Shown: one piece after another, positions 591 through 26,199 of the stretch
How the letters are laid out: each line of letters starts with the position of its first letter
Numbering within the stretch: position 1 is the stretch's first letter
Origin: Telmatocola sphagniphila
GTDB taxonomy: Bacteria; Planctomycetota; Planctomycetia; Gemmatales; Gemmataceae
Direction of reading: 5' to 3'
DNA: 32,000 nt
Assembly (NCBI RefSeq): GCF_018398935.1
Contig: NZ_CP074694.1
Span: forward strand, 3,960,001-3,992,000
Program-made: the position numbers and the translations under genes
Notes under the pieces: model-generated
The model's input: only the letters and a program-made list of their open reading frames with translations
What the model was told of the DNA's origin: nothing
Database searches by the model: none

Positions 591-3500
591 ATGAATCCCT
601 CTCCTGTGAATTCTGCTTCCTTACTCGAATCGATCGATGAATCCGCACGTCGCGAGTTCGAAGCATCTTGGGCAACTGGCTCGCCCCGCCTGATCGAAGA
701 TTTCATCCCACGGCCTGATGATCCTCGACGATTGGCGACGCTTGAAGAACTCGTCAGTATCGAACTCGAACTTGCTTGGAAGGCATTTCAAAAGTCAAGA
801 GCAGGTCCACAACCCTCTCGTGTCGAGAATTACCTGTCGCGATTCCCTGAATTGAATTCTTTCAATATCGTCTCTCGTCTGCTCAGGCAAGAATTCGATA
901 TACGAAAGAATTATGGGGATCGACCTTCAACCAACGAGTTCCGCGAGCGATTTCCCGAGTTCGCAACTGTTGTAGACAAATTGGAAACCGACGCGACAAA
1001 TGATAATGTCCAAGGTGAAGATAAACCGCCAGTAGTCGACGGGTATGAAGTCCTCAGGGTCTTGGGCAAAGGGGGTATGGGAGTTGTCTACGAGGCTGTC
1101 GAAGGCCGACTCGAGCGCTTAGTGGCTTTAAAAACATCTCGATTAGGATCGGGAAAGAACAACTCAGAAATTCGGATGCGATTCCTGGCTGAAGCACGCG
1201 TTGCCGCTCGGCTTGAGCACCCCGGTGTTGTTCCGGTTCACGAACTAGTGACGCCTTCGTCGGGCGAGCCATTTTACACGATGAAGCTTGTTCGAGGTAA
1301 AAGTCTGGCTGACGCAATTTATGAATTCCATGCCTCGAAACGACCCCCTAGCGAACAGGCCGTCGCCCGCCGACGGTTGATCGAAGCCTTCCTCGCGGTC
1401 ACTCGAACTATGGCATTCGCCCATGAGAAAGGCGTAATTCATCGTGACTTAAAGCCGGCGAATATTGTACTCGGAGAATATGGCGAGACACTAATACTCG
1501 ATTGGGGCTTGGCAAAAGAACTAAGCGAAGTTGGACCAGACGATTCGCATTATTCCGAAGCAAAGATCTCATCCGTCGAATTGACCGCGCGCGGTGTAGT
1601 ACTCGGAACACCTGCTTACATGTCTCCCGAACAGGCGGCAGGCCGAACGGATGAAGTAGATGCTCAAAGCGACGTCTATGCACTCGGAGCTATTCTTTAC
1701 CACATTTTGACGGGCCAACTACCTCATCGTTGTGTAGATGGAAATATCCTGCAATTCATACTGGAGAGCGAACCAGTACGTCCTTCGATAGCAGCGGCGA
1801 ACGTTGCACGTCCATTGGAAGAAATCTGCCTGAAGGCGATGACCAAGCGGCGAGAGGATCGCTATCCGACGGCAAAAGCACTCGCGGACGATGTAGAGCG
1901 ATGTCTAGCGGGAGAGCCAGTCTCGGTTTACAGGGAACGATTGCACGAAAGGTTTGCCAGGTGGTCGCGCCGGAATCGTCTTCTCGTCGCTACCGGCAGT
2001 GTGGCGGTCGTACTCTCCACCTTGGGTATCGTTGTGGGTCTTTACCTGCATTGGCAAGCGGAGCAAGAGCGGCGCGAACAGGAACTCAATTTTCAAATTG
2101 ATCGCAATCGCTTGGCCTACGAATCGGAACGTAAGGAAACGCAAGCTCGAACCGAAAAGCGAGAAGCGATTCTTCGTTCCGCCCAATATGAGCTAGCCCG
2201 CGGTATCGCTGAACTGAAGTCAGATCGCTTTTCCGCTGCTGAACAGGCCTTCCGTAAAGGGTTGGTCGATATAAATTCGATTGAAGATCCGGGCATGCGC
2301 TCGCAGTTAGAACGTTTGCATCGCGAGGCTGGGCACTTAGCTGGATTTTACCGTTATTGGGAACGAGCTGAACGGTTGGCTTTAGTCACTGATGATATTT
2401 CATATCAACCAGGAGACGACACCGTGGTTGCGGCCTGCGAAGCGGGCCTAAAGAACTTGGGTGTCCTGAATGGGCCCGCCGAGTGGTGGAATCATTTGCC
2501 AGATAGTGAACTTCAGGAGAACCAGCGTCACCGTCTACGAGAAGAAACTTGTTCTTCACTCGGCCTCCTGGCAATGTGGCGAACCAAACGCGCCGTTATG
2601 AAGGAATTGACAGGTGCAAAGGAAGCGAGCAAGATCGATTATCGCAATACTATCGAGATACTCGGCCGCATCCAAGCGTTCGTTCGGTCCGATACGCGGC
2701 GTAAATCTGGAGAGCGGGTGTCTCCGGCGGCTGATGGCCTCGAACTCTTCTGTCGGCTCCAATTGGGAGAACCTCCGAATGCATTAAAATTACCGCTCGT
2801 CGGCGACAACGCTACCGACCTCTATTTCCTGGGCGTAACTCATGTATTTCTTGAGTTCTCACGAGGTTATCTAGAATCCGGGCAAACCTTCAGCAAAATT
2901 TTGCCTCTTCTAGGCCGGGGATCCATGGTTGACATCTTGATGTCCCGACTCGGCGATTTTAAAAAATTAAGCGGACTTGATTTCACCACCCCATTAGTCA
3001 CAGCGGAACGACAACTTAGAAACGCAGTTGCGATGGACCCAAGCCACTATCTTTCTCACTACTGGCTCGGCCGTTGCCTTAGGGAAGCTAAGAATTTCTC
3101 GGCGGCAGAGCAAGCATTCAACTCCTGCATTGCACTACGTCCCGATTACGTTCCAGCTTATATCGGCCGCGCGGAAACCCTGATCATCGAATCGAATGAC
3201 ACAAAAAGAGCGAAGCCGCCTCGGCTGGCTCAGGACCTCCTTGAAGGGGCACTGCGCGGAATCGAAAAAGCGCCAGAGTCGGTACGCGCTGATCCGCAAG
3301 TTCGGTGGTTCGAATCGATCTGCTTGGAGAGGCTTGGTCGCGAAGACGAGTCATTGCAAGTTGCGACGGATGCCATGGAAAAGGAAATCGTTCAGCGAAA
3401 TGGAGTCACATCCGGCCTGCCCTCTATCGCGAAGTGGGCGTTGAAATATATGGAAGAAGAAGCGAAACTTAATCCTAACAACTTGGAGATTCAGGCTTGC

Positions 3501-3950
3501 CACGGAGTAGCTCTGCTGGGAAGTAAGCACTTTAAAGCTGCAAGAGATGTAGTGGATAAAGTTTTGATGAAAGATCAAAGGCAGTCTCGAGCCCTCGTAG
3601 TTCGCGGGATGTTACGGCTTGAATCAGGCGAGGCTCAAGGAGCACTGCAGGATTTTGACGCTGTACTTAATTTGTCTCCACGTCAGCAGGCGGCACTGGC
3701 AGGTCGAGCGTGGACGTTAGAGCAACTCGGCGACTGGGAAGCAGCTCTTAAAGCTCACTCCGCGCAGTTGCCGGAAGGCTTTGTCGGCAAGGGACCCCAA
3801 CATTTACAACCTTATCTCGGCCAAGCCAGAGCTTACCAGAAACTCGGCCGCTCCGAGGATGCCCGCAAAGCACTAGAAGCGGCACAGGAGATCGACCCGG
3901 TAGCAGCTGAAAATCTCAGTACCAAACTATTCCCACCAACAAGTCCATAA
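591..3950 (+). CDS. Ser/Thr protein kinase with one TM helix and C-terminal TPR-like repeats
   Basis: Hanks kinase motifs are present: G-loop LGKGGMGVV (nt 1062-1088), VALK, HRDLKPAN (nt 1440-1463), DWGLAK, GTPAYMSPEQ. A hydrophobic stretch LLVATGSVAVVLSTLGIVVGLYL follows the kinase domain. The C-terminal half has repeated TPR-like patterns (e.g. YWLGRCLREAKNFSAAEQAFNSCIALRPDY). Confidence 0.9.
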   Translation: MNPSPVNSASLLESIDESARREFEASWATGSPRLIEDFIPRPDDPRRLATLEELVSIELELAWKAFQKSRAGPQPSRVENYLSRFPELNSFNIVSRLLRQEFDIRKNYGDRPSTNEFRERFPEFATVVDKLETDATNDNVQGEDKPPVVDGYEVLRVLGKGGMGVVYEAVEGRLERLVALKTSRLGSGKNNSEIRMRFLAEARVAARLEHPGVVPVHELVTPSSGEPFYTMKLVRGKSLADAIYEFHASKRPPSEQAVARRRLIEAFLAVTRTMAFAHEKGVIHRDLKPANIVLGEYGETLILDWGLAKELSEVGPDDSHYSEAKISSVELTARGVVLGTPAYMSPEQAAGRTDEVDAQSDVYALGAILYHILTGQLPHRCVDGNILQFILESEPVRPSIAAANVARPLEEICLKAMTKRREDRYPTAKALADDVERCLAGEPVSVYRERLHERFARWSRRNRLLVATGSVAVVLSTLGIVVGLYLHWQAEQERREQELNFQIDRNRLAYESERKETQARTEKREAILRSAQYELARGIAELKSDRFSAAEQAFRKGLVDINSIEDPGMRSQLERLHREAGHLAGFYRYWERAERLALVTDDISYQPGDDTVVAACEAGLKNLGVLNGPAEWWNHLPDSELQENQRHRLREETCSSLGLLAMWRTKRAVMKELTGAKEASKIDYRNTIEILGRIQAFVRSDTRRKSGERVSPAADGLELFCRLQLGEPPNALKLPLVGDNATDLYFLGVTHVFLEFSRGYLESGQTFSKILPLLGRGSMVDILMSRLGDFKKLSGLDFTTPLVTAERQLRNAVAMDPSHYLSHYWLGRCLREAKNFSAAEQAFNSCIALRPDYVPAYIGRAETLIIESNDTKRAKPPRLAQDLLEGALRGIEKAPESVRADPQVRWFESICLERLGREDESLQVATDAMEKEIVQRNGVTSGLPSIAKWALKYMEEEAKLNPNNLEIQACHGVALLGSKHFKAARDVVDKVLMKDQRQSRALVVRGMLRLESGEAQGALQDFDAVLNLSPRQQAALAGRAWTLEQLGDWEAALKAHSAQLPEGFVGKGPQHLQPYLGQARAYQKLGRSEDARKALEAAQEIDPVAAENLSTKLFPPTSP

Positions 3951-4914: not shown

Positions 4915-5433
4915 TCACACAGAAGATGTTTTATCCAAGGTAGCCCTCGCCCGGCGGACTTTCTCCAGAATAGCCTCGGCTTTGGCAGTCCATTGGAATC
5001 CTTTTCCCGTGTTGTTGTGATGATCGATGTAGCCTTCAATTGCCTCGAACAACTGCGGCACACTTCGAAATATCCCTCGACGCAGTCGTTTGTCCGTTAA
5101 GTCGTGAAACCAGCGTTCCACCAGGTTCATCCAGGAACTGCTCGTGGGGATGAAATGCATGTGGAATCGAGGATGTCGGGCGAGCCAACGCTGAACTTTG
5201 GGATGCTTATGCGTCGCGTAGTTGTCCACGATCAAATGCAAGTCCAAGGCCGGATCGGTGGCGGCCTTGATCCGTTTGAGAAACTTGATCCATTCCTGGT
5301 GTCGATGTCGCGGCATGCATTCGCCAATTACTACTCCCTTGGCCACGTTCAGGGCCGCGAACAGAGTGGTGCCATGACGCGTGTAATCGTGAGTCAGAGT
5401 GCCGCAACGGCCGGGTATGATATCGTCCCGCAT
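4915..5433 (-). pseudogene. IS630-family transposase, 5'-truncated (C-terminal DDE half only)
   Basis: [11 protein letters not shown]...[20 protein letters not shown]...[17 protein letters not shown] matches the second D and the E region of IS630/Tc1-like transposases. The N-terminal HTH half and the first D are absent. The frame is closed at 5434-5436 by the stop codon of the upstream gene. Confidence 0.85.
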
Positions 5434-6201
5434 CTAACAGATATTGGCGATGGCCGCTTTTACATGATCGGCGAGTTTGTCCAAATACTGTTCCATGCCT
5501 TGCCGAGTAGTTGCCGGGTTTGTGCCTGCAATCTCATGTCCGACTTCATTCCGAAGTCGGGTGTAGATCGTCTCGTTCCGATTGAGATGAGAATTGAAGA
5601 TTTGTTGAACTCCCGGTTCTTGCCCAATAATGAAGTCATCCACATACTTCTGCGTGTATTTCGATCCACCCTCCAGTGAAAGGAGTATTTTGTACAGATG
5701 CATGAATCTTGCTACAGGATCTTCTTGGCAGATAATCCATCGGAATTGCGCATAGTAAGTGTCTTTCTTCGGATCGGATGCTCCAATGGCGATTTTTAAT
5801 CGCGGCACGTCAGCAACATTTATCGTGTGCGTAAAGCATCCACTACCTGAGAAATGGATTGTATTAGAGAAGGATCTATGGACAGTTTCTCCAGCGACTT
5901 GGACTTCGAAGCTACTATCACCTTTCACAGCATTCTCTGCAGCTATCTTGAATTCAAACGCGAGTCGATTAGCGACTTGTGTCGCGATCAATCGACCAAT
6001 GCTATCCGCATCTTCAACGGATGCGACTTGCTTGAAACAGACTTTGACGAGAATTTGTTTTTCATTAGGCGAACTGATCTCTACTCGAGCTACAAATGGA
6101 AACTCTTTTGTCGTCAAGTCGAAAGGAGTGAGTGTAAGAAAGTAATAGCCAGTTATTTTGATTTTATAGAATTGGTAGCCGGTAAGCATGAGTCCGCTCA
6201 T
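5434..6201 (-). CDS. Hypothetical protein with C-terminal HEPN-like RNxxxH motif
   Basis: 255-aa ORF with a beta-rich N-terminal half. The helical C-terminal half carries TRLRNEVGH (R217-N-E-V-G-H222, nt 5536-5553), which fits the HEPN R-N-x-x-x-H signature. The fold assignment is unverified. Confidence 0.55.
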   Translation of the reverse strand: MSGLMLTGYQFYKIKITGYYFLTLTPFDLTTKEFPFVARVEISSPNEKQILVKVCFKQVASVEDADSIGRLIATQVANRLAFEFKIAAENAVKGDSSFEVQVAGETVHRSFSNTIHFSGSGCFTHTINVADVPRLKIAIGASDPKKDTYYAQFRWIICQEDPVARFMHLYKILLSLEGGSKYTQKYVDDFIIGQEPGVQQIFNSHLNRNETIYTRLRNEVGHEIAGTNPATTRQGMEQYLDKLADHVKAAIANIC

Positions 6202-6938: not shown

Positions 6939-7640
6939 CTATTCTGGAGGCGTGACAATCGCTTGAAAACGAGTTACTTGCCAATCTAGCTCCTCTTTCA
7001 TTAGCTCACCTTTGGCATGACGGGCAAATTTCGCAGCCTCGCGTGCCGCCGAAGCACCGGTGACATGGCCTCTTGAAGCTTCGGCCGCTGACTTTGCTGC
7101 CCTACCCGCAACTACGGATGCCAGTCCTAATGTCAAAGATGCTTCTTCCGCTCGACTGCAAGCGGCTTCCGACTCATTCTGCGCGTCGTCGTTCTGAGCG
7201 GCATCTGTAAATTCTCGCGCCGTAGCGATCGTTGCCATTATTACGTCCTTTTGTTGGCCCGGAGGGATGATGTCCAATACGTGTGCTGCACAATCCAATG
7301 CAAATCGCCGAGCAGTATCATCTGTCCAGGTACCGGCATAAAGTTGCCGCACGAGTCGTACCCTCTTTGCAACCGTGTATCCATCCCGTTGCAGAAAAGG
7401 AGCATTTGCATCGAACTCCACCTCGAATAGAGCGTCTCCAAGCCACTGAACCATTTCACACATATCTAGGCAGAGAAAAATGCCTTTATCCGAATTCTTC
7501 GCATTGACGTTTATTGAGAGATCGCCCTCGACTTCAGCCCAATCGCCGGGTAGATCATTGATCGGCAACTTGCCAACAAAGGCATTATTGACGCCGAAGC
7601 CAGAAGAACCATCACGGTTTAACGTCTTGAAAAATGGCAT
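6939..7640 (-). CDS. Hypothetical protein (beta-rich N-terminal module + Ala-rich helical C-terminal module)
   Basis: 233-aa ORF lying 65 nt downstream of, and co-oriented with, the 528-aa gene. The N-terminal part ends ...GDALFEVEFD. The C-terminal part (ARRFALDCAAHVLD...AAKSAAEASRGHVTGASAAREAAKFARHA) recalls Imm5-type helical immunity-like proteins, from memory only. Confidence 0.55.
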   Translation of the reverse strand: MPFFKTLNRDGSSGFGVNNAFVGKLPINDLPGDWAEVEGDLSINVNAKNSDKGIFLCLDMCEMVQWLGDALFEVEFDANAPFLQRDGYTVAKRVRLVRQLYAGTWTDDTARRFALDCAAHVLDIIPPGQQKDVIMATIATAREFTDAAQNDDAQNESEAACSRAEEASLTLGLASVVAGRAAKSAAEASRGHVTGASAAREAAKFARHAKGELMKEELDWQVTRFQAIVTPPE

Positions 7641-7705
7641 CGGATTTCCTCGGATGAATAAATAAATCTCAATAAATTGGATTAATCCCCGCAGTATTCC
7701 TGCAA

Positions 7706-9292
7706 TTATTGGTTCACCTCAAGATCACCCCATTCTTGACCGCCCTTGGCGATTACTGAGAGTAATGCATTTGAACGTTTACGCATATCGCTGGGAATTC
7801 GAGCAAGGATCTCATCTGGACCGAGAATATCTGCTTGAATATTGTCCTTAAGAGCAAGTTCTTTTAATTTTGCTTTTGCGTCTTCCCCTATAGCACCGCT
7901 AGTCCAAATCTCTGCGTAGCATCTGCCGATAGCTTTGTTTTCTTTCTTCGTCCACCATTTGCGACAAGAGGGTACGGTCTCAACGAAGAACTTGGTCACT
8001 TCGGAAGGACTCAACTCTTTATGCTCGTGGTAGGCCTTGCATTCTACCATAATAAGATCATCTCCCTTTTTTCCAAAGACATCAACATCCCGCTTACGCT
8101 CTTCCCGAAAGGGTACATCTTGGCCAAGTACGATGCCTTCCCAACCTTCTGAACGTAATACAAGCCCTGCGAGAACTTCGAATCCTATGGAGCAGAGATC
8201 CATCACAACAGGATTCGACTTTAGATTTTCCAATGCGCCTAGGAACTGCTTGAATTCATTTTCAAGAGATTTCTGTTGGCCACTAACTCTTAAATCACCG
8301 AGAATTTGTTCGACCATAACCATTGCATTCAGAGCTTCGTCACCGAACATTTGGGTGAAATTAACTGTAACCAACCCCTTATTTTTTGCTTCGTCCCAAG
8401 CATTCTTATCGAATTGACGAGCACCAATGATACCTAGATATGGCTGTCGCCTTCTCCCCCAGTTGGTCGCATTGTTTGCTCGAGTTAGAAATGATTGAAC
8501 GGCGGACAATGAGCATCGATCCGCATAAACGTCAATCAATACAGGGCAGGGAATTCGTTTTTTTGCTTCGTTGACACGTACAAGCGGAGCAAGCCAGCTA
8601 AAGCCGTATGCGGTGAAGATTTGACCACTGTAATCGACATATCCTTTCGATTGCGAGGGCAACTCGTTGCCGTTCCATGAAACTAAGCTTTGCCGCTTAA
8701 GCCGGATTGTTAATATACGCGCAAGAAGGCTCTCCTTCCGGAGTGTTAGCAGTGATCTAATCGCTAGCTCGTCATAACTACTTTGGCTTTCCCAAGAATT
8801 CTCTGTAACAAGGTATTCGAATTCCGTGCCTTTCCCTCCTACCTTCACCCCCAATTCTGCTAAAGCTGTAACTTCTTCATCGAAAGAGGGTGAATGGGGA
8901 TTGGTCGAGACCGTTGCGGCCACGAGTCGATGCGCATGCGTTCGGTGAAGGACAGTATAACGTTCCAGTGCCTCCAGACAACGTGCAAGTCCTGGTCTTA
9001 ATTCACGTAGACACTCTGCGGCTTGACGGCAAAAGCCCGGTGTACCTACGAATGAAGATCTCGCAAAAAGTCGTTCCCCATGGGGGAGTTGCAAGTGTCC
9101 AGATCTCCAGAGCTTCGGGTCGCGAGTAGATGCTCGACTGATAGACTTTTTAGCGGCATCTCTCCCCATCCCACGCTCAGCCATTCGTTTGAGCAATTCG
9201 GAAGAAGTGATGAGTTCGCATTGGCCAATCAAATCGGATGGCTTGAACTTTTGCGGAACTGCGGCAACCATGATTTCCCCCAAGAAAGTCAC
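7706..9292 (-). CDS. Protein with tandem Mrr-like restriction-endonuclease-fold (PD-(D/E)xK) domains
   Basis: The C-terminal domain (aa about 368-495) reads FEVLAGLVLRSEGW...RDVDVFGKKGDDLIMVECKAY (E417-C-K419 at nt 8036-8044), followed by ...EIWTSGAIGEDAKAKL...ADILGPDEIL. This is the Mrr_cat-like layout. The middle domain (aa about 215-315: VLIDVYADR...GIIGARQFDKNAWDEAKNKGLVTVNF) has the same layout but lacks E-x-K. The N-terminal 130 aa or so are unassigned. Confidence 0.7.
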   Translation of the reverse strand: MTFLGEIMVAAVPQKFKPSDLIGQCELITSSELLKRMAERGMGRDAAKKSISRASTRDPKLWRSGHLQLPHGERLFARSSFVGTPGFCRQAAECLRELRPGLARCLEALERYTVLHRTHAHRLVAATVSTNPHSPSFDEEVTALAELGVKVGGKGTEFEYLVTENSWESQSSYDELAIRSLLTLRKESLLARILTIRLKRQSLVSWNGNELPSQSKGYVDYSGQIFTAYGFSWLAPLVRVNEAKKRIPCPVLIDVYADRCSLSAVQSFLTRANNATNWGRRRQPYLGIIGARQFDKNAWDEAKNKGLVTVNFTQMFGDEALNAMVMVEQILGDLRVSGQQKSLENEFKQFLGALENLKSNPVVMDLCSIGFEVLAGLVLRSEGWEGIVLGQDVPFREERKRDVDVFGKKGDDLIMVECKAYHEHKELSPSEVTKFFVETVPSCRKWWTKKENKAIGRCYAEIWTSGAIGEDAKAKLKELALKDNIQADILGPDEILARIPSDMRKRSNALLSVIAKGGQEWGDLEVNQ

Positions 9293-9633: not shown

Positions 9634-9966
9634 TTGTCTCGCTATCAAGGAGGCGATGTGGAACGTGGTAAGTACATCGTGACCAGGCGGGGTCAGGCCT
9701 CGGCCTTGGGGAAGCGCCGTATGCGCCGCGTCATTGTTATGCTCGAACAGCAGCCGCAGAGCAAAAACATTAAGCCAGCAGATGCGGAGGCATTTCGAAG
9801 CGCTATCCTCAAATGGCTCAAAATGTTAGGCCAAACGGCTTTCCGAAAAAACGTTTTCCTTCAGTTGGACTTCTTCACTACCGCGAAAGACCCACCTGAG
9901 ATCTACAGTTTGCCCAAGAACTACATCGATCTGTTACGGAAGCACGCGAAGGTTGCAGATAGCTCT
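9634..9966 (+). pseudogene. RusA-like module 1, N-terminal fragment (broken by inversion)
   Basis: ...ADAEAFRSAILKWL...KNVFLQLDFFTTAKDPPEIYSLPKNYIDLLRK parallels E. coli RusA AEGQAYRDNVARIIKN...[28 protein letters not shown]. After about 9963 the listed ORF runs antisense to the minus-strand frame and loses protein character. Confidence 0.5.
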
Positions 9967-10384
9967 GGTGGGCATCCATTCGCTTCATCTGTCGCATGTA
10001 CTCAAAAGCGTCGTTGTTCAGCAGCCTTATGAATGAATCCTTGTCGTCTTCGAACTCGGCCAGTTGCTGGAAGTCTTCGTTGTCCTGAAACGGACCGCTC
10101 CCCAAGTAGTCTGTTTTCCATGCATGTCCCCGAATCAAATCCTCGTCCTCGAAGTCGTCCCAATTGATTCTTTTGACGAGGCGGACTCCGGCGAGGAAGT
10201 CGCGGAACGGCTCCGCTCGCAGCCATACTCCAGGTTTCTCAGAACGGCCACACAAGTGGTAGCGGACAATTAGCGCCTTGACCTGCCGATCGTCGCGAAG
10301 GAGTAGCCGTGGACGAGTGCTATCACCAACGCTTGGAAAGACACACCTGTTCTGGAGGCTTGTATGCCTTTCAGAATACTCCCC
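9965..10384 (-). pseudogene. RusA-like module 1, C-terminal part on an inverted segment
   Basis: The minus-strand frame is open from 10384 but has no ATG or GTG before an internal TTG at 10255. It encodes RPRLLLRDDRQVKALIVRYHLCGRSEKPGVWLRAEPF (cf. RusA [30 protein letters not shown]) and then an acidic tail. Confidence 0.5.
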
Positions 10385-10588: not shown

Positions 10589-10948
10589 GTGACAGTCTTA
10601 ATGATCCCGTCGAAGGGTGGGGGTAAGGACCTCGATAACTTAGCCACCCGGATTATTCGGCCCCTGCACGAGATATGGGCTCCTCCGAGCGGCTTCGCGC
10701 ACGCCTCCAACACTGACAACATCAAGGAGAAGGGGAACAGGGAGTATTGGGAGAAAGCCCGCAACAAACTGCCGAAGGCACTGAAGTATTCGATCACGGA
10801 ATACCGCGTCTTTGAGCTCCCACGCTTGCCCGATGACCCTAAAGAGGGTTTCGTCCGGCTCGCCTTCGACGGCGGCTTGCAGCCCGTGCAGTTTCGTGAG
10901 GAGAGCGACGATTACCTTGAAAAGTGGGAAAACTCCTTTGACCTCTGA
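10589..10948 (+). CDS. RusA-like module 2 (start uncertain; similarity extends upstream to 10472 with no start codon)
   Basis: LNVTVLMIPSKGGGKDLDNLATRIIRPL resembles the RusA [16 protein letters not shown] block, and ...ITEYRVFELPRLPDDPKEGFVRLAF is the terminal hairpin. The same frame upstream (from 10472) reads GDGEAFDQAIRKTLES, paralogous to module 1, but contains no ATG/GTG/TTG (only ATT/CTG) before the GTG at 10589. Confidence 0.5.
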   Translation: MTVLMIPSKGGGKDLDNLATRIIRPLHEIWAPPSGFAHASNTDNIKEKGNREYWEKARNKLPKALKYSITEYRVFELPRLPDDPKEGFVRLAFDGGLQPVQFREESDDYLEKWENSFDL

Positions 10949-11154: not shown

Positions 11155-11562
11155 TCATTTATTGGTATACAACGAAATTGCTTCGTCAGTTGTCATCGTT
11201 TGGAAGGATTCGGCAAAATTCGACCGATTTGTCTCGAAACTCTCCTTGCATTTCACCGGAACAAAAAGTATGAGATCGGAACGGCTTCTCGTCATAGCGA
11301 CATAAGCTATTCTCCTCGCTTCGCGATCCTTCGTATTATTAGACCACCAAATTTGTGAAGGGCAATTAGCTGTATTCGTTCGGTCTGGACAGACAAAAAT
11401 CGAAATATCATGAGTTTCTCCTTTGACTGCATGGACTGTCTCAATTGATATTGATCTGGCAGATATTTGCTGGCTTTTGAATGGAATAGTAACATTCGCA
11501 ATTTCAGATGCTGACGTTAGCTTTTTGGGTTTGGGTACAGTCGTTGGAGTGGCCAATCCTTT
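11155..11562 (-). pseudogene. gajB: UvrD-like helicase GajB, 3' part (split by ISAs1 insertion)
   Basis: ...SIETVHAVKGETHDISIFV...RIAYVAMTRSRSDLILFV matches helicase motifs V/VI. The first 11 codons of the listed ORF (MFSWNLSAISL) are IS-end sequence. The gajB sequence begins at KGLATPTTV. Confidence 0.85.
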
Positions 11563-12851
11563 CAGGGAAATCGCGCTTAAATTCCAAGAAAACATCTAAT
11601 GTCATTAATTGTATTGCGCATCGTTCTTCTTTAGTGGAGGATGTGGAAATCGCTCGCTAGATCGCCCTGGGGTTCCTCGATGTTTCAGCTTTCCGAACTA
11701 TCTCCCGCGCCGGCGAAAACTCCGTTGACCGATCTCCTCGTCCACTTCGCGGATTTGCCCGACCACCGCCTCGATCGTTGCCAACAACACACGCTTTCGG
11801 AAATCATTTTCATAGCCATTTGCGCCGCGGTTTCCGGAGCCAACGACTGGGTGGCCGTCGAAGCTTTCGGCGTGACCAAGATCGACTGGTTCCGGAAGTA
11901 TCTCCCTTGCCCAACGGCATCCCGAGCCATGACACTTTCGGCCGAGTTTTCCGCTATCTGGACACGGATGCTTTCGAGGCCTGCTTCGCTTCATGGATGG
12001 CGGAAATCTGCGTCGGGACCGACCTGCTTCAGGTGGCGATCGACGGCAAGACGATGCGTTCGTCAGGCGGTCCGGGTCAGAAGTGCCTGCACGTGGTCAG
12101 CGCGTTTGCGACGGCCAACCGCGTGACGCTGGGCCAAGAGGCGGTGGACGATAAATCGAACGAGATCACCGCGATCCCGGAATTGCTGAAACGGCTGGAC
12201 ATTGCCGGAAAAATCGTGACTATCGACGCGATGGGCTGTCAAAAAAATCGCCGAGGCGGTGCGGGAACGGGACGCGGATTACCTGTTGGCGGTGAAGGAC
12301 AATCAACCGACTCTCTTGGCCGAGATCAAGGCTCATTACTTCAAGCATTTGGAGTCCGGATTCGCCGATGTACCGACGACGTTCTGCGAATCGACGGAGA
12401 AGAATCGAGGCCGAGTGGAGTACCGTTCGTGCCTCGTGTTTTCGGACGTCAATTTCTTATCGATGAAGGACGATTGGAAAGGCTTGAAGACGGTGGTCGT
12501 GGTGGTGACCGACCGCCGAGAAAACCACAAGAGCGCGAGCGAAATCCGCTACTATATTTGCAGCCGAGCGTCGGACGCTCCGGTGTTGGCGAAAGCGGTC
12601 CGGGAACATTGGACGATCGAGAATAATTTGCATTGGTCCTTGGATGTGACATTCGGCGACGACGACAGCCGGGTTCGAAAAGATAACGGCCCTCAGAATT
12701 TCGCCAGGATTAAAAGGTTGGCTCTGAGCATAGTGGCGAATGCGAGCGGCAAGGAATCGATGGCAGTCAAACGACTGAAAGCCTGCGCCAGCGATGAACG
12801 CCGAGAATTAATTATTCGAGAATTCCTTCAGCTTTAAATGCGATTTCCCTG
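11563..12851 (+). mobile_element. ISAs1-family insertion sequence, copy 1 (1289 bp)
   Basis: Terminal inverted repeats CAGGGAAATCGCGCTTAAA (left) and CAGGGAAATCGCATTTAAA (rc of right), 17/19. Exact 10-bp direct duplication CCAATCCTTT at 11553-11562 and 12852-12861. Essentially identical to 24911-26199. Confidence 0.9.
11641..12837 (+). pseudogene. ISAs1-family (H-repeat/YhhI-like) transposase with two frameshifts
   Basis: The N-terminal part in frame 1 reads ...LLVHFADLPDHRLDRCQQHTLSEIIFIAICAAVSGANDWVAVEAFG...WFRKYL. The middle in frame 3 reads LPNGIPSHDTFGRVF...VAIDGKTMR...SNEITAIPELL...IDAMGCQK. The C-terminal part returns to frame 1 (DYLLAVKDNQ...HWTIENNLHWSLDVTFGDD). The shifts lie near 11905 (C-run) and at the A7 run 12241-12247. 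Confidence 0.85.
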
Positions 12852-14250
12852 CCAATCCTTTGATTGCGGCTACAGCAGAAATATGCCTGGTTATAATTGT
12901 CCACGCTTTGCTCTGCCAACCAAAAAGTGTATCATTAACATCTAATGAATCGCCTTCAAGGAGGCACTGGACACATCGTTCTCTCCATTCAAATACCGAC
13001 AAACCATATTTAGATAGCTGCTCATCAGTAATTCCTTCCTGTTCGAACAGAGCTAATTCGAGCGAAGCCCGGCAAGCCGCGAGGGCCAAGGAGTTTTGTC
13101 CTTGACGGAAAGCAATCACAGCGCGTTGGAAGTGGTTTAAGGGTGGGCTACCCAATTTGCGAGGCTGTTCTGATTTGTGACCTTTTAGTACCCTTACGGT
13201 CATGTTGAGTCTTGCGATAGCTTTGATAACCGAATTTGAATGCGATTTACTAACCGCCGCAGACAGCCGATTGAAATCTACAACCATGTCATCATAAGTC
13301 ACCATAAGCGCCCTACCGACAGGGTTATTTTCGGGAGATACGATGTTTCCTGTCTCCTTCAAGTGACTTGCCACTTTAGCAACCGATTTTGAGCAACGAA
13401 GACTCGTGCTCAATGGAAAGACCTCAGCATCCTGGATGATCTCAAACTGGTCAAACAAATCTGGTCGCGCACCGTTAAATTCAAAAATTGACTGGTCAGG
13501 GTCGCCAACAAGAACGCCGCGCACATATGAGCTGCTTAAAATGCTCTTCAGACATTTACTCAAGAAGAAACCGGTGTCTTGCAATTCATCAATAAAAATT
13601 AAAGGGAAACGGCGTGTGATCTCAGTGATAATTAACGCCTTATATTTTTCATCTTCTAAAAGCTTGCTTGCCCACAACGCGGCATCTGAATGAGTCATAA
13701 GGCCAGATTTCTTCCAAACATTATTTTTACATTCTTTTACAATTCTCAGATCGTCTCCTGTCAATTTGATTAATGGCTGCATTGGGTGAGGTTTTCTCGC
13801 TGCAATTGCGCCTTGACAGTCTTCATCAATCCAGACGCAGCTACAGAGGTTAATGCCTTTGCCTACATTCGCCTTCAGGCCTTTGCCAAGGCTGCTCCAA
13901 TGCTCTGCTCCCCATTCGCCGGGTAACAACCGAGGGTGGCGGAAGATCGGATAACATTTGCAAAAAAATGGACGAATCACATAGCGAAATAGAAAAGAAT
14001 CGATTGTTCCCACAAAATGTGGATGGCTTAGATCGCGACCGACCGCCTTTCGAATTTCTTCTCCGCCAACCTTTGTGAATGACAAAGCTGCAATGCCGCT
14101 GGTTTGGGTTTGCCAAGAGTTTAGCTCGCGGAGGATTAGTTCGGCCACCATCCAAGTCTTTCCGCTGCCGGGCGATGCGCGTACCACGCGGATTCGAGAC
14201 CCGTTTTTGTTGTCAATAACTGCCTGCTGCTCAACGGTCGGAAACCTCAT
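12852..14250 (-). pseudogene. gajB: UvrD-like helicase GajB, 5' part (split by ISAs1 insertion)
   Basis: Walker A VRASPGSGKTW and motif II IFIDELQDT are present. The listed 480-aa ORF ends ...AAIKGL then reads into the IS end (AGKSHLKLKEFSNN). Removing the IS and one duplication copy joins ...AAIKGL|ATPTTV... in frame. The start overlaps the gajA stop (ATGA at 14247-14250). Confidence 0.85.
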
Positions 14251-16085
14251 TGTGTAGAGTCTCCTGAAGAATGGTCTTTTGGTGGATCAATTCCCGTAAC
14301 AACGAAGTCAATTGCTCTACTGAGATACGGCGGCACTGCGAATTCGAGCGTACAGGCTGTGCATTTGCTAGAAATGGTTAACTTGGCAGCCAATTTGTGC
14401 GCAAATTCGGCTTTGCTTCCTGTGTGATTGGCACGACATATCCCTCGCCAAGTTGCTAACGCGCGGTCTTTTAGATCGTTGCCTGCTTTAGCCAGCCTAT
14501 CTTTGTTGAAGGTTGTGGGCTTTTTTTCAAAGCATGATTCCCAAACATCTGCCATGACGTTAGCGTTGTTGTTGCCCGCTAGAGCTAGATCATATTCGAG
14601 TGTTAGTGCCGAACTGAAGACTTGAACCGAAGTGTGCTTGTCAAATAGCAACCTAAGATTGACCATGCGCGCCGATGGTACGAATTCCCCATCTTTCATT
14701 TCAGGCACCGCTTCTTCCCACTTCACATTCGTAGGCACGGAAGGATCAGAATCTGATACAATCGCCACGGGGATTCCAAAACCTTTGGTGTCAAACAGCT
14801 TTTTGAATGTCCCAAACGCTACACCACAGATGGGAATTACAGAAATGTGCAGTTTCGCCAAATCGCGTCCAAGACGTTTGGCCAATGGTGGAAGAAGAAG
14901 TGCTTCTGAAATTCCCTCAACAAGTATTACGGCTTTTGCAAAATAAAGCGTCGCTCGCGTAACATCAAGCATCCGCTGAAGGTCTGATTCTTCCGTGGGA
15001 GTCATTCCCGAATTTGCGATTCGGTTGCAATGGAGCGATCCCATTTTGTCCGCGAACAGGACCGAGATTCGGCATGGCTGCACACTCGCCGCCAGCGTTG
15101 GGGAGTGAGTTGTGACTATGGTTTGAGGAGTTTTGGAGCCAGGTGTCTTGTTAGACAAATACTCAGCGAGCAGCATAGTAAGCTGAGGATGCAAATGAGC
15201 CTCCGGCTCCTCGATAAGCAGGAGGGGGCTTTCGTCGGGCACTGGCTCTCGAAGATGCTCTAGGACAACCGCAATATAGAGCAAATTATTGTAGCCTAGC
15301 CCGTTAGCTTCAAGATCGCCAATTGGTGCTCCATCCATTTGGATGTGAAGCAAACGAAGTATTCGTTCAAATTCAACTTCTGCTGCCCTAATCGCAGATG
15401 GGGAGTAGTCGCTACCAGCAAGTTCAATCGTAGTAGACTGAAGAGAGGTAATGGTTCCTTTAATTAAATCATGCTTTTCGAGCTCATGGTTCGCTTGGCT
15501 ATAGATCGACTCAATGTCCGTTTTGACTGTGCCACCTCGACGCTCCGCAAGATCGCGTAGCAGCAGTGCAAGCCTACTTCGGCTCCCAGGAGTAAGAGAT
15601 GCTTTCGCATCACGAAGGGCAGGAAGATACGTGACAGGCAAGGACTCTAAAATCCGCGTCGAAATATCTTGTGTGTCTGGGGCAACAGGGCCGCCAGTTC
15701 TCCGAATCTGGGCCTGCCTTTTCCCTTTTGGCCAGCTAGCCGTGAATTTGATAACCGCTTTGGAATTAGCAAGGTTCGTTACATTGAAATCAACTATTTC
15801 GAAAAAATGTGAGCGTTGTTCCGCCGAAAGATCTGCGAAGGTTAGAGTTATCGAAATCGTTCGGTATTCAGTATCTTCTACAGATTCCTTGAAAAAGTCA
15901 TCTCGGTCAAGCCAAAGAGATTCACCTCTAGACGCGCTAGGGCCAAGTGCATGACGTATAGCATCTAAGATTGCAGTTTTGCCAGTATTGTTTCTACCGA
16001 CTACCACATTTAGCCCTGCACCTAAATCTACCCTCAAGGATTTGATCGCACGAAAATTCTCGATTTCAACAATGGATAGAAACAT
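14247..16085 (-). CDS. gajA: OLD-family ATPase/TOPRIM nuclease GajA
   Basis: N-terminal ABC-type ATPase (IENFRAIK...VVGRNNTGKTAILDAI, ...LLLIEEPEAHLHPQ) and C-terminal TOPRIM (VILVEGISEALLLP, VAIVSDSDPS). It sits immediately upstream of a UvrD-like helicase, which is the class-2 OLD / Gabija arrangement. Confidence 0.85.
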   Translation of the reverse strand: MFLSIVEIENFRAIKSLRVDLGAGLNVVVGRNNTGKTAILDAIRHALGPSASRGESLWLDRDDFFKESVEDTEYRTISITLTFADLSAEQRSHFFEIVDFNVTNLANSKAVIKFTASWPKGKRQAQIRRTGGPVAPDTQDISTRILESLPVTYLPALRDAKASLTPGSRSRLALLLRDLAERRGGTVKTDIESIYSQANHELEKHDLIKGTITSLQSTTIELAGSDYSPSAIRAAEVEFERILRLLHIQMDGAPIGDLEANGLGYNNLLYIAVVLEHLREPVPDESPLLLIEEPEAHLHPQLTMLLAEYLSNKTPGSKTPQTIVTTHSPTLAASVQPCRISVLFADKMGSLHCNRIANSGMTPTEESDLQRMLDVTRATLYFAKAVILVEGISEALLLPPLAKRLGRDLAKLHISVIPICGVAFGTFKKLFDTKGFGIPVAIVSDSDPSVPTNVKWEEAVPEMKDGEFVPSARMVNLRLLFDKHTSVQVFSSALTLEYDLALAGNNNANVMADVWESCFEKKPTTFNKDRLAKAGNDLKDRALATWRGICRANHTGSKAEFAHKLAAKLTISSKCTACTLEFAVPPYLSRAIDFVVTGIDPPKDHSSGDSTQ

Positions 16086-23981: not shown

Positions 23982-24910
23982 TTAAGATTCTTGAACGCGA
24001 TTTGGATTGCCAGTAGAAAACCGGCGGTATTCCAAAGGAGAATATCCAGTCTGCTTCTTAAAGACTCGACAGAAGTGACTTTGATCGGAAAAACCTAAGA
24101 GAAGTGCCACTTCGGATAGAGGCTGATCAGTCTTATCCAGCAAGTCTCGAGCGCGATCGATGCGGCGTAAACGGACAAACTCGCCAATACTCATCCCGAA
24201 GTGTTTATGAAAGCTAGAGGCGAGATAAGTTGGATGAACACCAACATCTGCGGCTAGCTGTTTTAATGAAGGCACGATCTCATATTCTTCGTGCAATCGA
24301 TCCCGGACTCTTCGTAGCCAGATTGGAACCTTGCTGTCGCGCACGCACTCGCGAACCGTTTCCGCTAACAGCAGGTATGTCAACCCTTCGAAAGCAATGC
24401 CCGAAACGGAATCGCGGTTGAGCAATTCTTTATAAATATTCCTGGCCACCAGACAGGCTCGGCCGCCGTCAGTATGCCAGATCGGATCGGATAAACGGAC
24501 GCGGTTAATCTCTTCGCAAAAGCTAGGCACGAATTCCACGTGCATGCAACGTCCTTGCTCGTGCCACTTGTTAGAATGCTCGATACCGGCCGGATGGAAG
24601 ACAAGCGAACCAGGTTTCAGCGGCTCACAACGCCCGCCGGTACGCTCCTCGCAAATTCCATCGAGTACGAAACAGAAATACGGATCGCGATGTTCATGCT
24701 TTGGAAAAGCTACGCCTTTGGAGTAGTGGGATAAATCGATGCAAAGTTCGTCAGACGACCAACTTTGGTGGCTAATACCAAAAAAGGTTTTCGGTTTAAG
24801 TCTAAGCAAAGCTATACCCCTCCAGCAGTATGGCGGAGAGAGCCATCTTCTCGGCAAATCGACTGTTTTCAGCGCAATCTTTTTTCGTATGAAGCGAAGG
24901 GCTATTTTGG
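23982..24910 (-). CDS. AraC-family transcriptional regulator (cupin + HTH); 5' end abuts/clipped by ISAs1 copy 2
   Basis: Cupin-like FPKHEHRDPYFCFVLDG...FHPAGIEHSN and a C-terminal AraC HTH (...LKQLAADVGVHPTYLASSFHKHFGMSIGEFVRLRRIDRARDLL...LGFSDQSHFCRVFKKQTGYSPLEYRR). The listed ORF start (24953) lies inside the IS. No ATG was found in the native part before MHVEF, so the true start is unresolved. Confidence 0.8.
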
Positions 24911-26199
24911 CAGGGAAATCGCGCTTAAATTCCAAGAAAACATCTAATGTCATTAATTGTATTGCGCATCGTTCTTCTTTAGTGGAGGATGTGGAAATCG
25001 CTCGCTAGATCGCCCTGGGGTTCCTCGATGTTTCAGCTTTCCGAACTATCTCCCGCGCCGGCGAAAACTCCGTTGACCGATCTCCTCGTCCACTTCGCGG
25101 ATTTGCCCGACCACCGCCTCGATCGTTGCCAACAACACACGCTTTCGGAAATCATTTTCATAGCCATTTGCGCCGCGGTTTCCGGAGCCAACGACTGGGT
25201 GGCCGTCGAAGCTTTCGGCGTGACCAAGATCGACTGGTTCCGGAAGTATCTCCCTTGCCCAACGGCATCCCGAGCCATGACACTTTCGGCCGAGTTTTCC
25301 GCTATCTGGACACGGATGCTTTCGAGGCCTGCTTCGCTTCATGGATGGCGGAAATCTGCGTCGGGACCGACCTGCTTCAGGTGGCGATCGACGGCAAGAC
25401 GATGCGTTCGTCAGGCGGTCCGGGTCAGAAGTGCCTGCACGTGGTCAGCGCGTTTGCGACGGCCAACCGCGTGACGCTGGGCCAAGAGGCGGTGGACGAT
25501 AAATCGAACGAGATCACCGCGATCCCGGAATTGCTGAAACGGCTGGACATTGCCGGAAAAATCGTGACTATCGACGCGATGGGCTGTCAAAAAAATCGCC
25601 GAGGCGGTGCGGGAACGGGACGCGGATTACCTGTTGGCGGTGAAGGACAATCAACCGACTCTCTTGGCCGAGATCAAGGCTCATTACTTCAAGCATTTGG
25701 AGTCCGGATTCGCCGATGTACCGACGACGTTCTGCGAATCGACGGAGAAGAATCGAGGCCGAGTGGAGTACCGTTCGTGCCTCGTGTTTTCGGACGTCAA
25801 TTTCTTATCGATGAAGGACGATTGGAAAGGCTTGAAGACGGTGGTCGTGGTGGTGACCGACCGCCGAGAAAACCACAAGAGCGCGAGCGAAATCCGCTAC
25901 TATATTTGCAGCCGAGCGTCGGACGCTCCGGTGTTGGCGAAAGCGGTCCGGGAACATTGGACGATCGAGAATAATTTGCATTGGTCCTTGGATGTGACAT
26001 TCGGCGACGACGACAGCCGGGTTCGAAAAGATAACGGCCCTCAGAATTTCGCCAGGATTAAAAGGTTGGCTCTGAGCATAGTAGCGAATGCGAGCGGCAA
26101 GGAATCGATGGCAGTCAAACGACTGAAAGCCTGCGCCAGCGATGAACGCCGAGAATTAATTATTCGAGAATTCCTTCAGCTTTAAATGCGATTTCCCTG
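24911..26199 (+). mobile_element. ISAs1-family insertion sequence, copy 2 (1289 bp)
   Basis: Same ends and the same ORF pattern as copy 1. I noticed one difference (G at 12735 vs A at 26083, synonymous). The flanks (...CTATTTTGG | ACTGAAGAGC...) show no direct duplication. Confidence 0.9.
24989..26185 (+). pseudogene. ISAs1-family transposase with the same two frameshifts as copy 1
   Basis: The ORF-track translations in all listed frames are identical to copy 1, at an offset of 13348 nt. Confidence 0.85.

Follow-up and report, generated by a model that had tools for sequence, protein, structure and literature searches.

Adjacent genes for a predicted tandem nuclease-fold protein and a divergent Imm5_like protein in Telmatocola sphagniphila, with no sign of a conserved two-gene system

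The chromosome of Telmatocola sphagniphila (Planctomycetota) contains two adjacent genes, here called gene A and gene B, which lie within a stretch of 32,000 nucleotides (nt) of contig NZ_CP074694.1 (positions 3,960,001 to 3,992,000). This whole stretch is referred to as the window, and coordinates are those of the window unless another locus is named. In the original prediction, which was made from the sequence letters, the two genes were described as a two-gene cassette in which a tandem restriction-endonuclease (REase)-fold protein and a smaller partner would play a defence or toxin-antitoxin-like role beside a Gabija operon. The open reading frames (ORFs) were recovered where this description placed them, both on the minus strand and separated by 65 nt. 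Comparison with relatives in other genomes indicates that A and B are not a conserved system and that neither family has a conserved partner. The two genes and their parts, as derived from alignments, Pfam and an AlphaFold2 (AF2) model, are listed below, in which aa stands for amino acids, H for helix and S for strand.

7706..9292, minus strand: gene A, a 528-aa ORF with a GTG start at 9292
9053..9241, minus strand: first winged-helix-like module of A, aa 18-80, H-S-H-H-S-S (DSSP of the AF2 model and conservation)
8798..9040, minus strand: putative second winged-helix-like module of A, aa 85-165 (DSSP of the AF2 model)
8288..8680, minus strand: degenerate PD-(D/E)xK-fold domain of A, aa 205-335 (domain model, Foldseek and alignment)
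7793..8215, minus strand: Mrr-like PD-(D/E)xK nuclease domain of A, aa 360-500 (Pfam, invariant residues and Foldseek)
8179-8177, 8083-8081, 8044-8042 and 8038-8036, minus strand: putative active-site codons of A for E372, D404, E417 and K419, respectively (conservation)
7641..7705, minus strand: A-B spacer, 65 nt, AT-rich, with gene A upstream of gene B
6939..7640, minus strand: gene B, 233 aa, KIH39_15775 / WP_213494187.1, 'hypothetical protein'
7341..7640, minus strand: DUF7666-type N-terminal half of B, aa 1-~100 (family-level Pfam)
6954..7328, minus strand: Imm5_like Ala-rich helical half of B, aa ~105-229 (family-level Pfam)

An exact-sequence look-up showed that the NCBI version of gene A is a 521-aa protein with an ATG start at 9271 (KIH39_15780 / WP_213494188.1), which is also annotated as 'hypothetical protein', and that the product of gene B is 100% identical to KIH39_15775. 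Judged by their homologs, both are real genes and not chance ORFs, because A has 46 full-length homolog clusters and B has 382 representatives. The A family is small: a word-indexed search of 5.8 billion proteins returned only these 46 clusters, nearly all of them full length (~490-640 aa), with 35-62% identity. The B family is larger: phmmer against 1.84 billion cluster representatives yielded its 382 proteins at E<=1e-3, the majority of which are 180-280 aa long, with alignments that mostly span nearly the full length.

In Telmatocola, the two genes show a tight, operon-like linkage on the same strand. A Shine-Dalgarno (SD)-like GAGGA is located within the spacer, 6 nt ahead of the ATG of gene B, and neither a terminator nor a sigma-70-type promoter was predicted when the 65 nt were scanned. 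These features are compatible with co-transcription of A and B, which is possible. A comparison of the GC content, overall and at third codon positions (GC3), of A, B and their neighbours was uninformative.

The cassette was assessed with tblastn in both directions. A set of 28 A-family loci including the window was used, which corresponds to 24 distinct loci (the window and 23 others) after the removal of the duplicate fetches L003 and L006. Relatives of B were present in none of the 27 other A-family loci (0/27), and relatives of A were present in none of the B-family loci (0/103, covering 740 kb). The A-B cassette is not supported, because this reciprocal search shows no co-occurrence. The original prediction had itself named a lack of synteny in other genomes as the observation that would speak against the cassette, and the homologs are indeed not syntenic in the other sampled genomes.

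No other partner of A was found either. All-versus-all BLAST of the neighbours within ~4 kb in the 28 loci gave no conserved neighbour, and in a Pfam search over 130 neighbours of A homologs no family occurred in more than three loci. DNA methyltransferase families were matched by fewer than two of these 130 neighbours each, and no methyltransferase match was found among the ten scanned ORFs of the window between 591 and 16085. The surroundings of A differ between loci. The closest homolog of A (L001, 62% identity) is followed by a 1139-aa PNP_UDP_1/'PN effector' protein, and the homolog in L002 (61% identity) by a 371-aa CoiA_N protein. In L004, the next gene is convergent to the A homolog, and in L005 there is no gene for ~1 kb downstream of it. 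An arrangement consisting of a conserved A with a variable downstream partner was also considered and was rejected: a tightly linked gene in the same orientation follows A in only about 7 of the 24 loci, and these downstream genes are unrelated to one another.

The architecture of A was derived from an AF2 model of the full-length protein, built as a single chain with the family alignment (41 members), which has a predicted local distance difference test score (pLDDT) of 90.4 and a predicted template modelling score (pTM) of 0.86. In this model, two H-S-H-H-S-S modules are followed by a long helix (aa 170-200), an alpha/beta domain (aa 205-335), a helical linker and a nuclease core (aa 360-500). 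From their topology, the two N-terminal modules are read as winged-helix-like. In the first of them, R53 and W62 are invariant and T29, S30, A47, R48, Q49, R63 and S64 are at least 90% conserved, in what would be a recognition helix and wing. No Pfam family matched these modules in a scan of the whole protein, and hhalign detected no sequence similarity between the first and the second module. The original prediction had suggested that the N-terminal part might bind DNA, and the modelled pair of winged-helix-like modules does look like a DNA-binding region.

The C-terminal domain contains the putative catalytic site. Its modelled core has the classical alpha-beta-beta-beta-alpha-beta order, and E372, D404, E417 and K419, as well as R401, are invariant in the alignment. 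On this basis, the PD-(D/E)xK catalytic core (E...D...(D/E)xK) is predicted to be intact. Mrr_cat is the sole Pfam match of A, and a precomputed hit to PF04471 is present in five of the homolog clusters. In Foldseek searches against the Protein Data Bank (PDB), this domain matched the nuclease domains of Can2/Card1, MspJI, NucS and AF1548. The motif RDVDVFGKKGDDLIMVECKAY, which had been quoted for this region, is found at aa 401-421 of A; its coordinates are nt 8092..8030, so that the range of 8036-8091 given in the original prediction was a few bases off.

The middle domain is of the same fold and is predicted to be catalytically inactive. The motif VLIDVYADR, quoted earlier as degenerate, is located at aa 251-259; D254 is invariant and is followed by x-Y/H in place of x-K, no ExK is present, and the upstream catalytic Asp is missing from the alignment. 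The other invariant residues of this domain are R271, G287, F294, A298, A302 and G317. When the domain was modelled alone (aa 160-345, model m5146146ba7c1, pLDDT 88.8), the nuclease folds of MspJI, NucS/EndoMS, AspBHI and AF1548 were the top Foldseek matches in the PDB (prob 0.99-1.0, E 3e-4 to 2e-2), and Can2/Card1 matched at E 0.06-0.3 only. Matches to Mus81-Eme1 were weak (prob 0.14). Since the isolated middle domain matches nuclease folds ahead of Can2/Card1, the original description of A as two REase-fold modules in tandem, the middle one degenerate and the C-terminal one an intact D...ExK nuclease, is correct at the level of predicted structure.

The same searches bear on an alternative in which A is a CARF-type nuclease activated by cyclic oligonucleotides, like Can2/Card1, with the middle domain as ligand sensor. 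With the full model of A, the CARF nucleases Can2, Card1, VC1899 and Cdn1 were indeed among the top Foldseek matches in the PDB, over 300-390 columns and together with MspJI, NucS/EndoMS and AF1548. However, the template modelling (TM) scores of these matches are only ~0.2 and their root-mean-square deviations exceed 20 Å. The isolated middle domain, moreover, best fits MspJI, NucS and AspBHI, and its matches to Can2/Card1 presumably arise via the nuclease domains of the latter. Among the 130 neighbours, no PADLOC family recurs except GajA/AriA-type models. A Can2-like sensor role for the middle domain was rejected after the modelling and fold search of the isolated domain, and the CARF explanation as a whole is extremely improbable.

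The two nuclease-fold domains of A share no detectable sequence similarity in hhalign (middle versus C-terminal sub-alignment), and therefore a recent internal duplication of the nuclease domain was rejected. A search with the A family profile against the sequences of solved structures in the PDB gave chance matches only.

A is a member of a previously undescribed family of rare and patchily distributed proteins, with two winged-helix-like modules, a degenerate REase-fold domain and a REase domain (wH-wH-REase*-REase). In a scan of one genome per species, 23 A loci were found, all of them in metagenome-assembled genomes (MAGs) of Planctomycetota, Verrucomicrobiota and Acidobacteriota. Some copies look decayed. 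In L022 (6001..7532), the tblastn match is fragmented and the A-family ORF is no longer than 257 aa, and in L023 (6001..6402) and L027 (1351..1575) only C-terminal pieces of A are left. Such decayed-looking copies fit a dispensable accessory gene.

A word-indexed protein search with B found only B itself. The family became visible with phmmer, and a family profile search added 482 further relatives, one of which (P0237) is named 'putative immunity protein' by NCBI. Among 60 aligned relatives, Imm5_like was matched by 43, Imm5 by 32 and DUF7666 by 26. B itself reaches only 13.5 bits against Imm5_like (E=0.07), below the cut-off of 25, and on the evidence of its relatives it can be regarded as a divergent member of a DUF7666 + Imm5_like family. 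The original prediction had described a beta-rich N-terminal module and an Ala-rich helical region reminiscent of immunity-type proteins. This description holds at the family level for both halves, with DUF7666 in 26/60 and Imm5_like in 43/60 relatives; B had been left unassigned there, and its homologs now place it in these two Pfam families. The 'immunity protein' label of the family is itself a computational prediction. The definition of Imm5, as a mostly alpha-helical immunity protein against DYW-deaminase and CdiA-CT toxins, came from computation alone (Zhang et al. 2012, PMC3482391), and literature searches for DUF7666/Imm5_like found no experimental work.

The conserved positions of the family are largely kept in B (27 of the 28 checked). 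The C-terminal half aligns with the Imm5_like family and retains the conserved R111 and D116/C117 ('RRFALDCA'). The one exception is residue 55 (window 7476..7478), at which the near-invariant His of the DUF7666 'G-Y-H-L-C' motif is Phe. This change is observed in B and its closest homolog P0048 only (2/60), and both also have a 6-residue insertion just ahead of it. The function of that His may have been lost in the B/P0048 subfamily. Two giant proteins, P0151 (1648 aa) and P0195 (6790 aa), contain 13 and 17 copies, respectively, of the family's helical core (query aa ~103-156), an arrangement reminiscent of 'polyimmunity proteins' known from Imm domains. The B family profile matched only designed helical repeats among the sequences of solved structures. 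Some relatives match PHROGs of unassigned function (phrog_18326 and phrog_38757), and NCBIfam and PHROGs scans of A and B themselves gave nothing meaningful.

Members of the B family reside chiefly in phages and mobile DNA and have no conserved neighbour. At least 87 viral-contig loci were found in IMG/VR, and the phage-like contigs L030 and L031 hold B relatives as well. Where a full ORF was available (82 loci), it is surrounded by small ORFs with a median of ~105 aa, and none of the neighbour families is shared by more than five loci. In GenBank phages, tblastn with a B relative gave one weak match, in Methanosarcina virus MetMV (MK170447.1, 47629..47922; 28.6% identity over 47% of the query, E=8e-5). 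This sole match is to an archaeal virus, compared with at least 87 loci in IMG/VR, and the family seems to be under-represented among cultured phages. Of two metagenome scans for close relatives of B, the first found none and the second found 17 loci, mostly on short contigs with little context. The closest homolog, P0048 (55% identity; L029, 183..2029), is located 42 nt downstream of a gene for a 367-aa patatin phospholipase, not a nuclease, on a contig of 2.3 kb. This patatin matches the PADLOC model of a CBASS-type phospholipase effector (CapV-like) with E=6e-89. Other relatives lie behind an 870-aa ResIII helicase (L032), ahead of a PglZ-like gene (L034) and near a resolvase (L132).

These settings can be used to weigh a second alternative, in which A and B are a lineage-specific toxin-immunity pair resembling a toxin-antitoxin module. 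The nuclease A would be toxic, and the Imm5-like B, captured from the phage or mobile pool, would restrain it until infection. Effector-then-immunity gene order is common for polymorphic toxins, and A and B are co-oriented with a 65-nt gap that holds an SD-like GAGGA ahead of B and in which no terminator was predicted. In addition, the B family is computationally predicted to consist of immunity proteins (PMC3482391; the NCBI name of P0237), and a 'variable effector + B-type gene' pattern is visible, with the CapV-like patatin 42 nt before the closest relative of B and the 870-aa helicase before another. The wider family, however, is found mostly among small phage ORFs, and A and B do not co-occur in any of the 27 other A-family or 103 B-family loci. 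Downstream of most A homologs there is either no tightly linked gene or one unrelated to B, and A would therefore need no antidote. A trafficking or secretion domain was also not detected in A, for which Pfam gave only Mrr_cat. A toxin-immunity pair is therefore regarded as unlikely.

The defence setting of A was examined with PADLOC. Neither A nor B matched any family of the PADLOC-DB 2.0.0 hidden Markov models at E<=1, in line with the earlier statement that the pair could not be matched to a named defence system. The proposed defence setting is also borne out for A, since A-family genes are often located beside defence genes: recognised defence genes are found within ~3 kb of A in at least 8 of the 24 distinct loci. 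In L014 (2392..7494), the A homolog is co-oriented with and 211 nt downstream of a gene for a 1119-aa HmaC (PADLOC E=0); it is known that further defence candidates can be nested within Hma loci. In L015, PDC-S39 is located downstream of the A homolog, and in L020, NsnA-like, NERD/UvrD-like and dCTP-deaminase-like genes flank it.

In the window itself, the Gabija system named in the original prediction is present, with both GajA and GajB confirmed, and gajB turned out to be split by an insertion sequence (IS):

14247..16085: GajA (PADLOC E=1e-126)
11155..14250, minus strand: gajB, split into an N-terminal part (12808..14250) and a C-terminal part (11155..11595)
11563..12851: IS with a DDE_Tnp_1 transposase, 1289 bp, interrupting gajB

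The Gabija system of the window is probably inactive. A 99.9% identical copy of the IS is located at 24911..26199, where it overlaps the start of the ORF 23982..24953.

Gabija genes also accompany A elsewhere. A full Gabija system is located beside A in L011 (1773..7503) and L024 (5929..11408), and GajA beside A in L018 (1267..4891). Since GajA proteins of different lineages are 26-41% identical, A and Gabija must have come to lie together at least three times independently; between L011 and L024, GajA (65.5%) and A (65.6%) have diverged equally. The adjacency occurs in differing orientations and could be due to island clustering or to a functional link. No experimental work on a Gabija-linked Mrr-like gene was found in literature searches. 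A third alternative follows the functional link and proposes that A is an accessory, third component that works with GajA and GajB, with B being irrelevant. In favour of it, A and GajA are no more than 3 kb apart in four loci (the window, L011, L024 and L018), which represent at least three independent lineages. Against it, only 4 of the 24 A loci are adjacent to Gabija and 20 have no Gabija nearby, and the arrangement varies (divergent, convergent, or co-oriented at a distance of 1.9 kb). Gabija in its canonical form consists of two genes, neither A nor B matches a Gaj model in PADLOC, and in the window gajB has been destroyed by the IS and A is intact. A role of A as a Gabija component is very unlikely.

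Other neighbours of the two genes were labelled 'HEPN-like' (5434..6201) and 'RusA-like' in the original prediction, and neither label found support in Pfam or PADLOC. In the 'RusA-like' area, the ORFs 9634..10032 and 10589..10948 have no Pfam or PADLOC match. At 4915..6201 on the minus strand, the 255-aa ORF 5434..6201 ends immediately before the start of a DDE_3 transposase fragment of 172 aa (4915..5433). At 591..3950 on the plus strand, a 1119-aa Ser/Thr kinase with TPR repeats is encoded, the kinase domain of which matches 'PD-T4-6' in PADLOC (E=9e-71). This match probably reflects a similarity shared by kinase domains in general and does not argue for a defence role.

The favoured explanation, held with moderate confidence, is that A and B are functionally independent, horizontally mobile genes that lie side by side by chance in a decaying defence/IS island, and that A is a solitary DNA endonuclease. 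Because neither a cognate methyltransferase nor a conserved partner was found, A is most likely comparable in its action to Type IV (modification-dependent) enzymes or to other anti-phage restriction nucleases that consist of a single protein. The two N-terminal winged-helix-like modules would read DNA, recognising a modification, a structure or a sequence. The dead PD-(D/E)xK-fold domain may pack on the active one, as an intramolecular pseudo-dimer partner or as a second DNA clamp. The C-terminal Mrr-like domain, with its conserved E372, D404 and E417-x-K419, would cut the DNA, and A as a whole would be a solitary, Type IV-like enzyme that restricts foreign and possibly modified DNA. The arrival of B was most likely independent of that of A. 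It may be co-transcribed with A in Telmatocola, and nothing indicates that A needs B.

Several observations weigh against this explanation. Only about a third of the A loci have a recognised defence neighbour within ~3 kb, and others, such as L002 and L005, lie among housekeeping, metabolic or regulatory genes. The winged-helix assignment is based solely on the order of the secondary-structure elements in the model, and the Mrr_cat match (PF04471, aa 370-436, E=0.0019) scores 18.8 bits against a Pfam gathering score of 21. A and B are co-oriented and 65 nt apart, with a spacer that is predicted to be terminator-free, and they have a similar GC content below that of the flanks (0.47 and 0.51), so that a local functional coupling of A and B is still conceivable. 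Also, three of the closest B relatives with context adjoin large enzymes (patatin, helicase and PglZ-like), which hints that this subfamily may pair with effectors.

A broader extension of these observations would combine two proposals. The A family would be a new anti-phage restriction nuclease that is encoded by one gene and is missing from PADLOC-DB 2.0.0, the sole defence catalogue scanned. The mostly phage-borne DUF7666/Imm5-like family would be a broad class of effector inhibitors, the members of which are captured beside different effectors (the nuclease here, the CapV-like patatin in L029 and the helicase in L032) as built-in brakes or decoys. If this were true, the A-B pair would represent a single instance of a modular principle, 'any effector + Imm5-like guard'. 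This extension is quite unlikely.

If A is confirmed as a defence nuclease, a rare family would be added to the catalogue of single-protein restriction, found in Planctomycetota, Verrucomicrobiota and Acidobacteriota only. To our knowledge, these phyla have barely been explored for phage defence. The architecture of A is unusual, being a dead-plus-live tandem nuclease with two putative DNA readers. DUF7666/Imm5_like is a large, phage-associated family, and its members beside recognised effectors provide a starting point for functional tests. The locus also illustrates that adjacent, co-oriented genes in a defence island need not be a system, and that a reciprocal synteny test separates A and B.

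Compared with known systems, B resembles Imm5/Imm5_like proteins (PMC3482391) in that its C-terminal half aligns with them and that its family is also found in multi-copy, 'polyimmunity'-like giants. Unlike in the Imm5 systems of the same study (PMC3482391), no DYW-deaminase or CdiA-CT toxin is adjacent to B, and the upstream A matches only Mrr_cat in Pfam. B also differs from Imm5 (PMC3482391) in its extra N-terminal DUF7666 module, and its family occurs mostly in phage contigs among small ORFs.

A shares with Can2/Card1 a C-terminal PD-(D/E)xK nuclease behind an alpha/beta domain, but the domain that precedes the nuclease in A is a nuclease fold and not CARF. Pairs of active and inactive nuclease folds are known from the catalytic and effector domains of Sau3AI, from Mus81-Eme1 and from XPF-ERCC1, for which a role in DNA binding or in scaffolding the active copy is ascribed to the degenerate one. 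A likewise pairs an intact PD-(D/E)xK-type domain with a degenerate copy of the same fold. In contrast to these examples, both folds of A are in one chain, first the dead and then the active one, and they lack mutual sequence similarity.

The nearest described kind for A is formed by the winged-helix (wH)-nuclease fusion Type IV enzymes (PMC11037411) and the MspJI/AspBHI family. Both nuclease-fold domains of A find their best structural matches in MspJI and AspBHI (PDB 4f0p and 4oc8), which combine an N-terminal reader with a C-terminal PD-(D/E)xK domain. MspJI differs from A in having an SRA-like reader rather than winged helices and a single nuclease domain, and the resemblance is distant (identity 13-17%, TM 0.2-0.4). 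FcyTI and Psp4BI are PD-(D/E)XK-wH enzymes, that is, wH-nuclease fusions that act as Type IV restriction enzymes (PMC11037411). Unlike Mrr and these fusions, A has two N-terminal wH-like modules and an extra dead nuclease-fold domain; its wH-like modules have no Pfam match, its whole-protein profile has no sequence match to a solved structure, and its Mrr_cat match is sub-threshold. If its wH-like modules are DNA readers, A would, like them, join such readers to a PD-(D/E)xK/Mrr-type cleavage domain in one chain, and it shares with them the lack of a cognate methyltransferase, the patchy spread and the location in defence islands.

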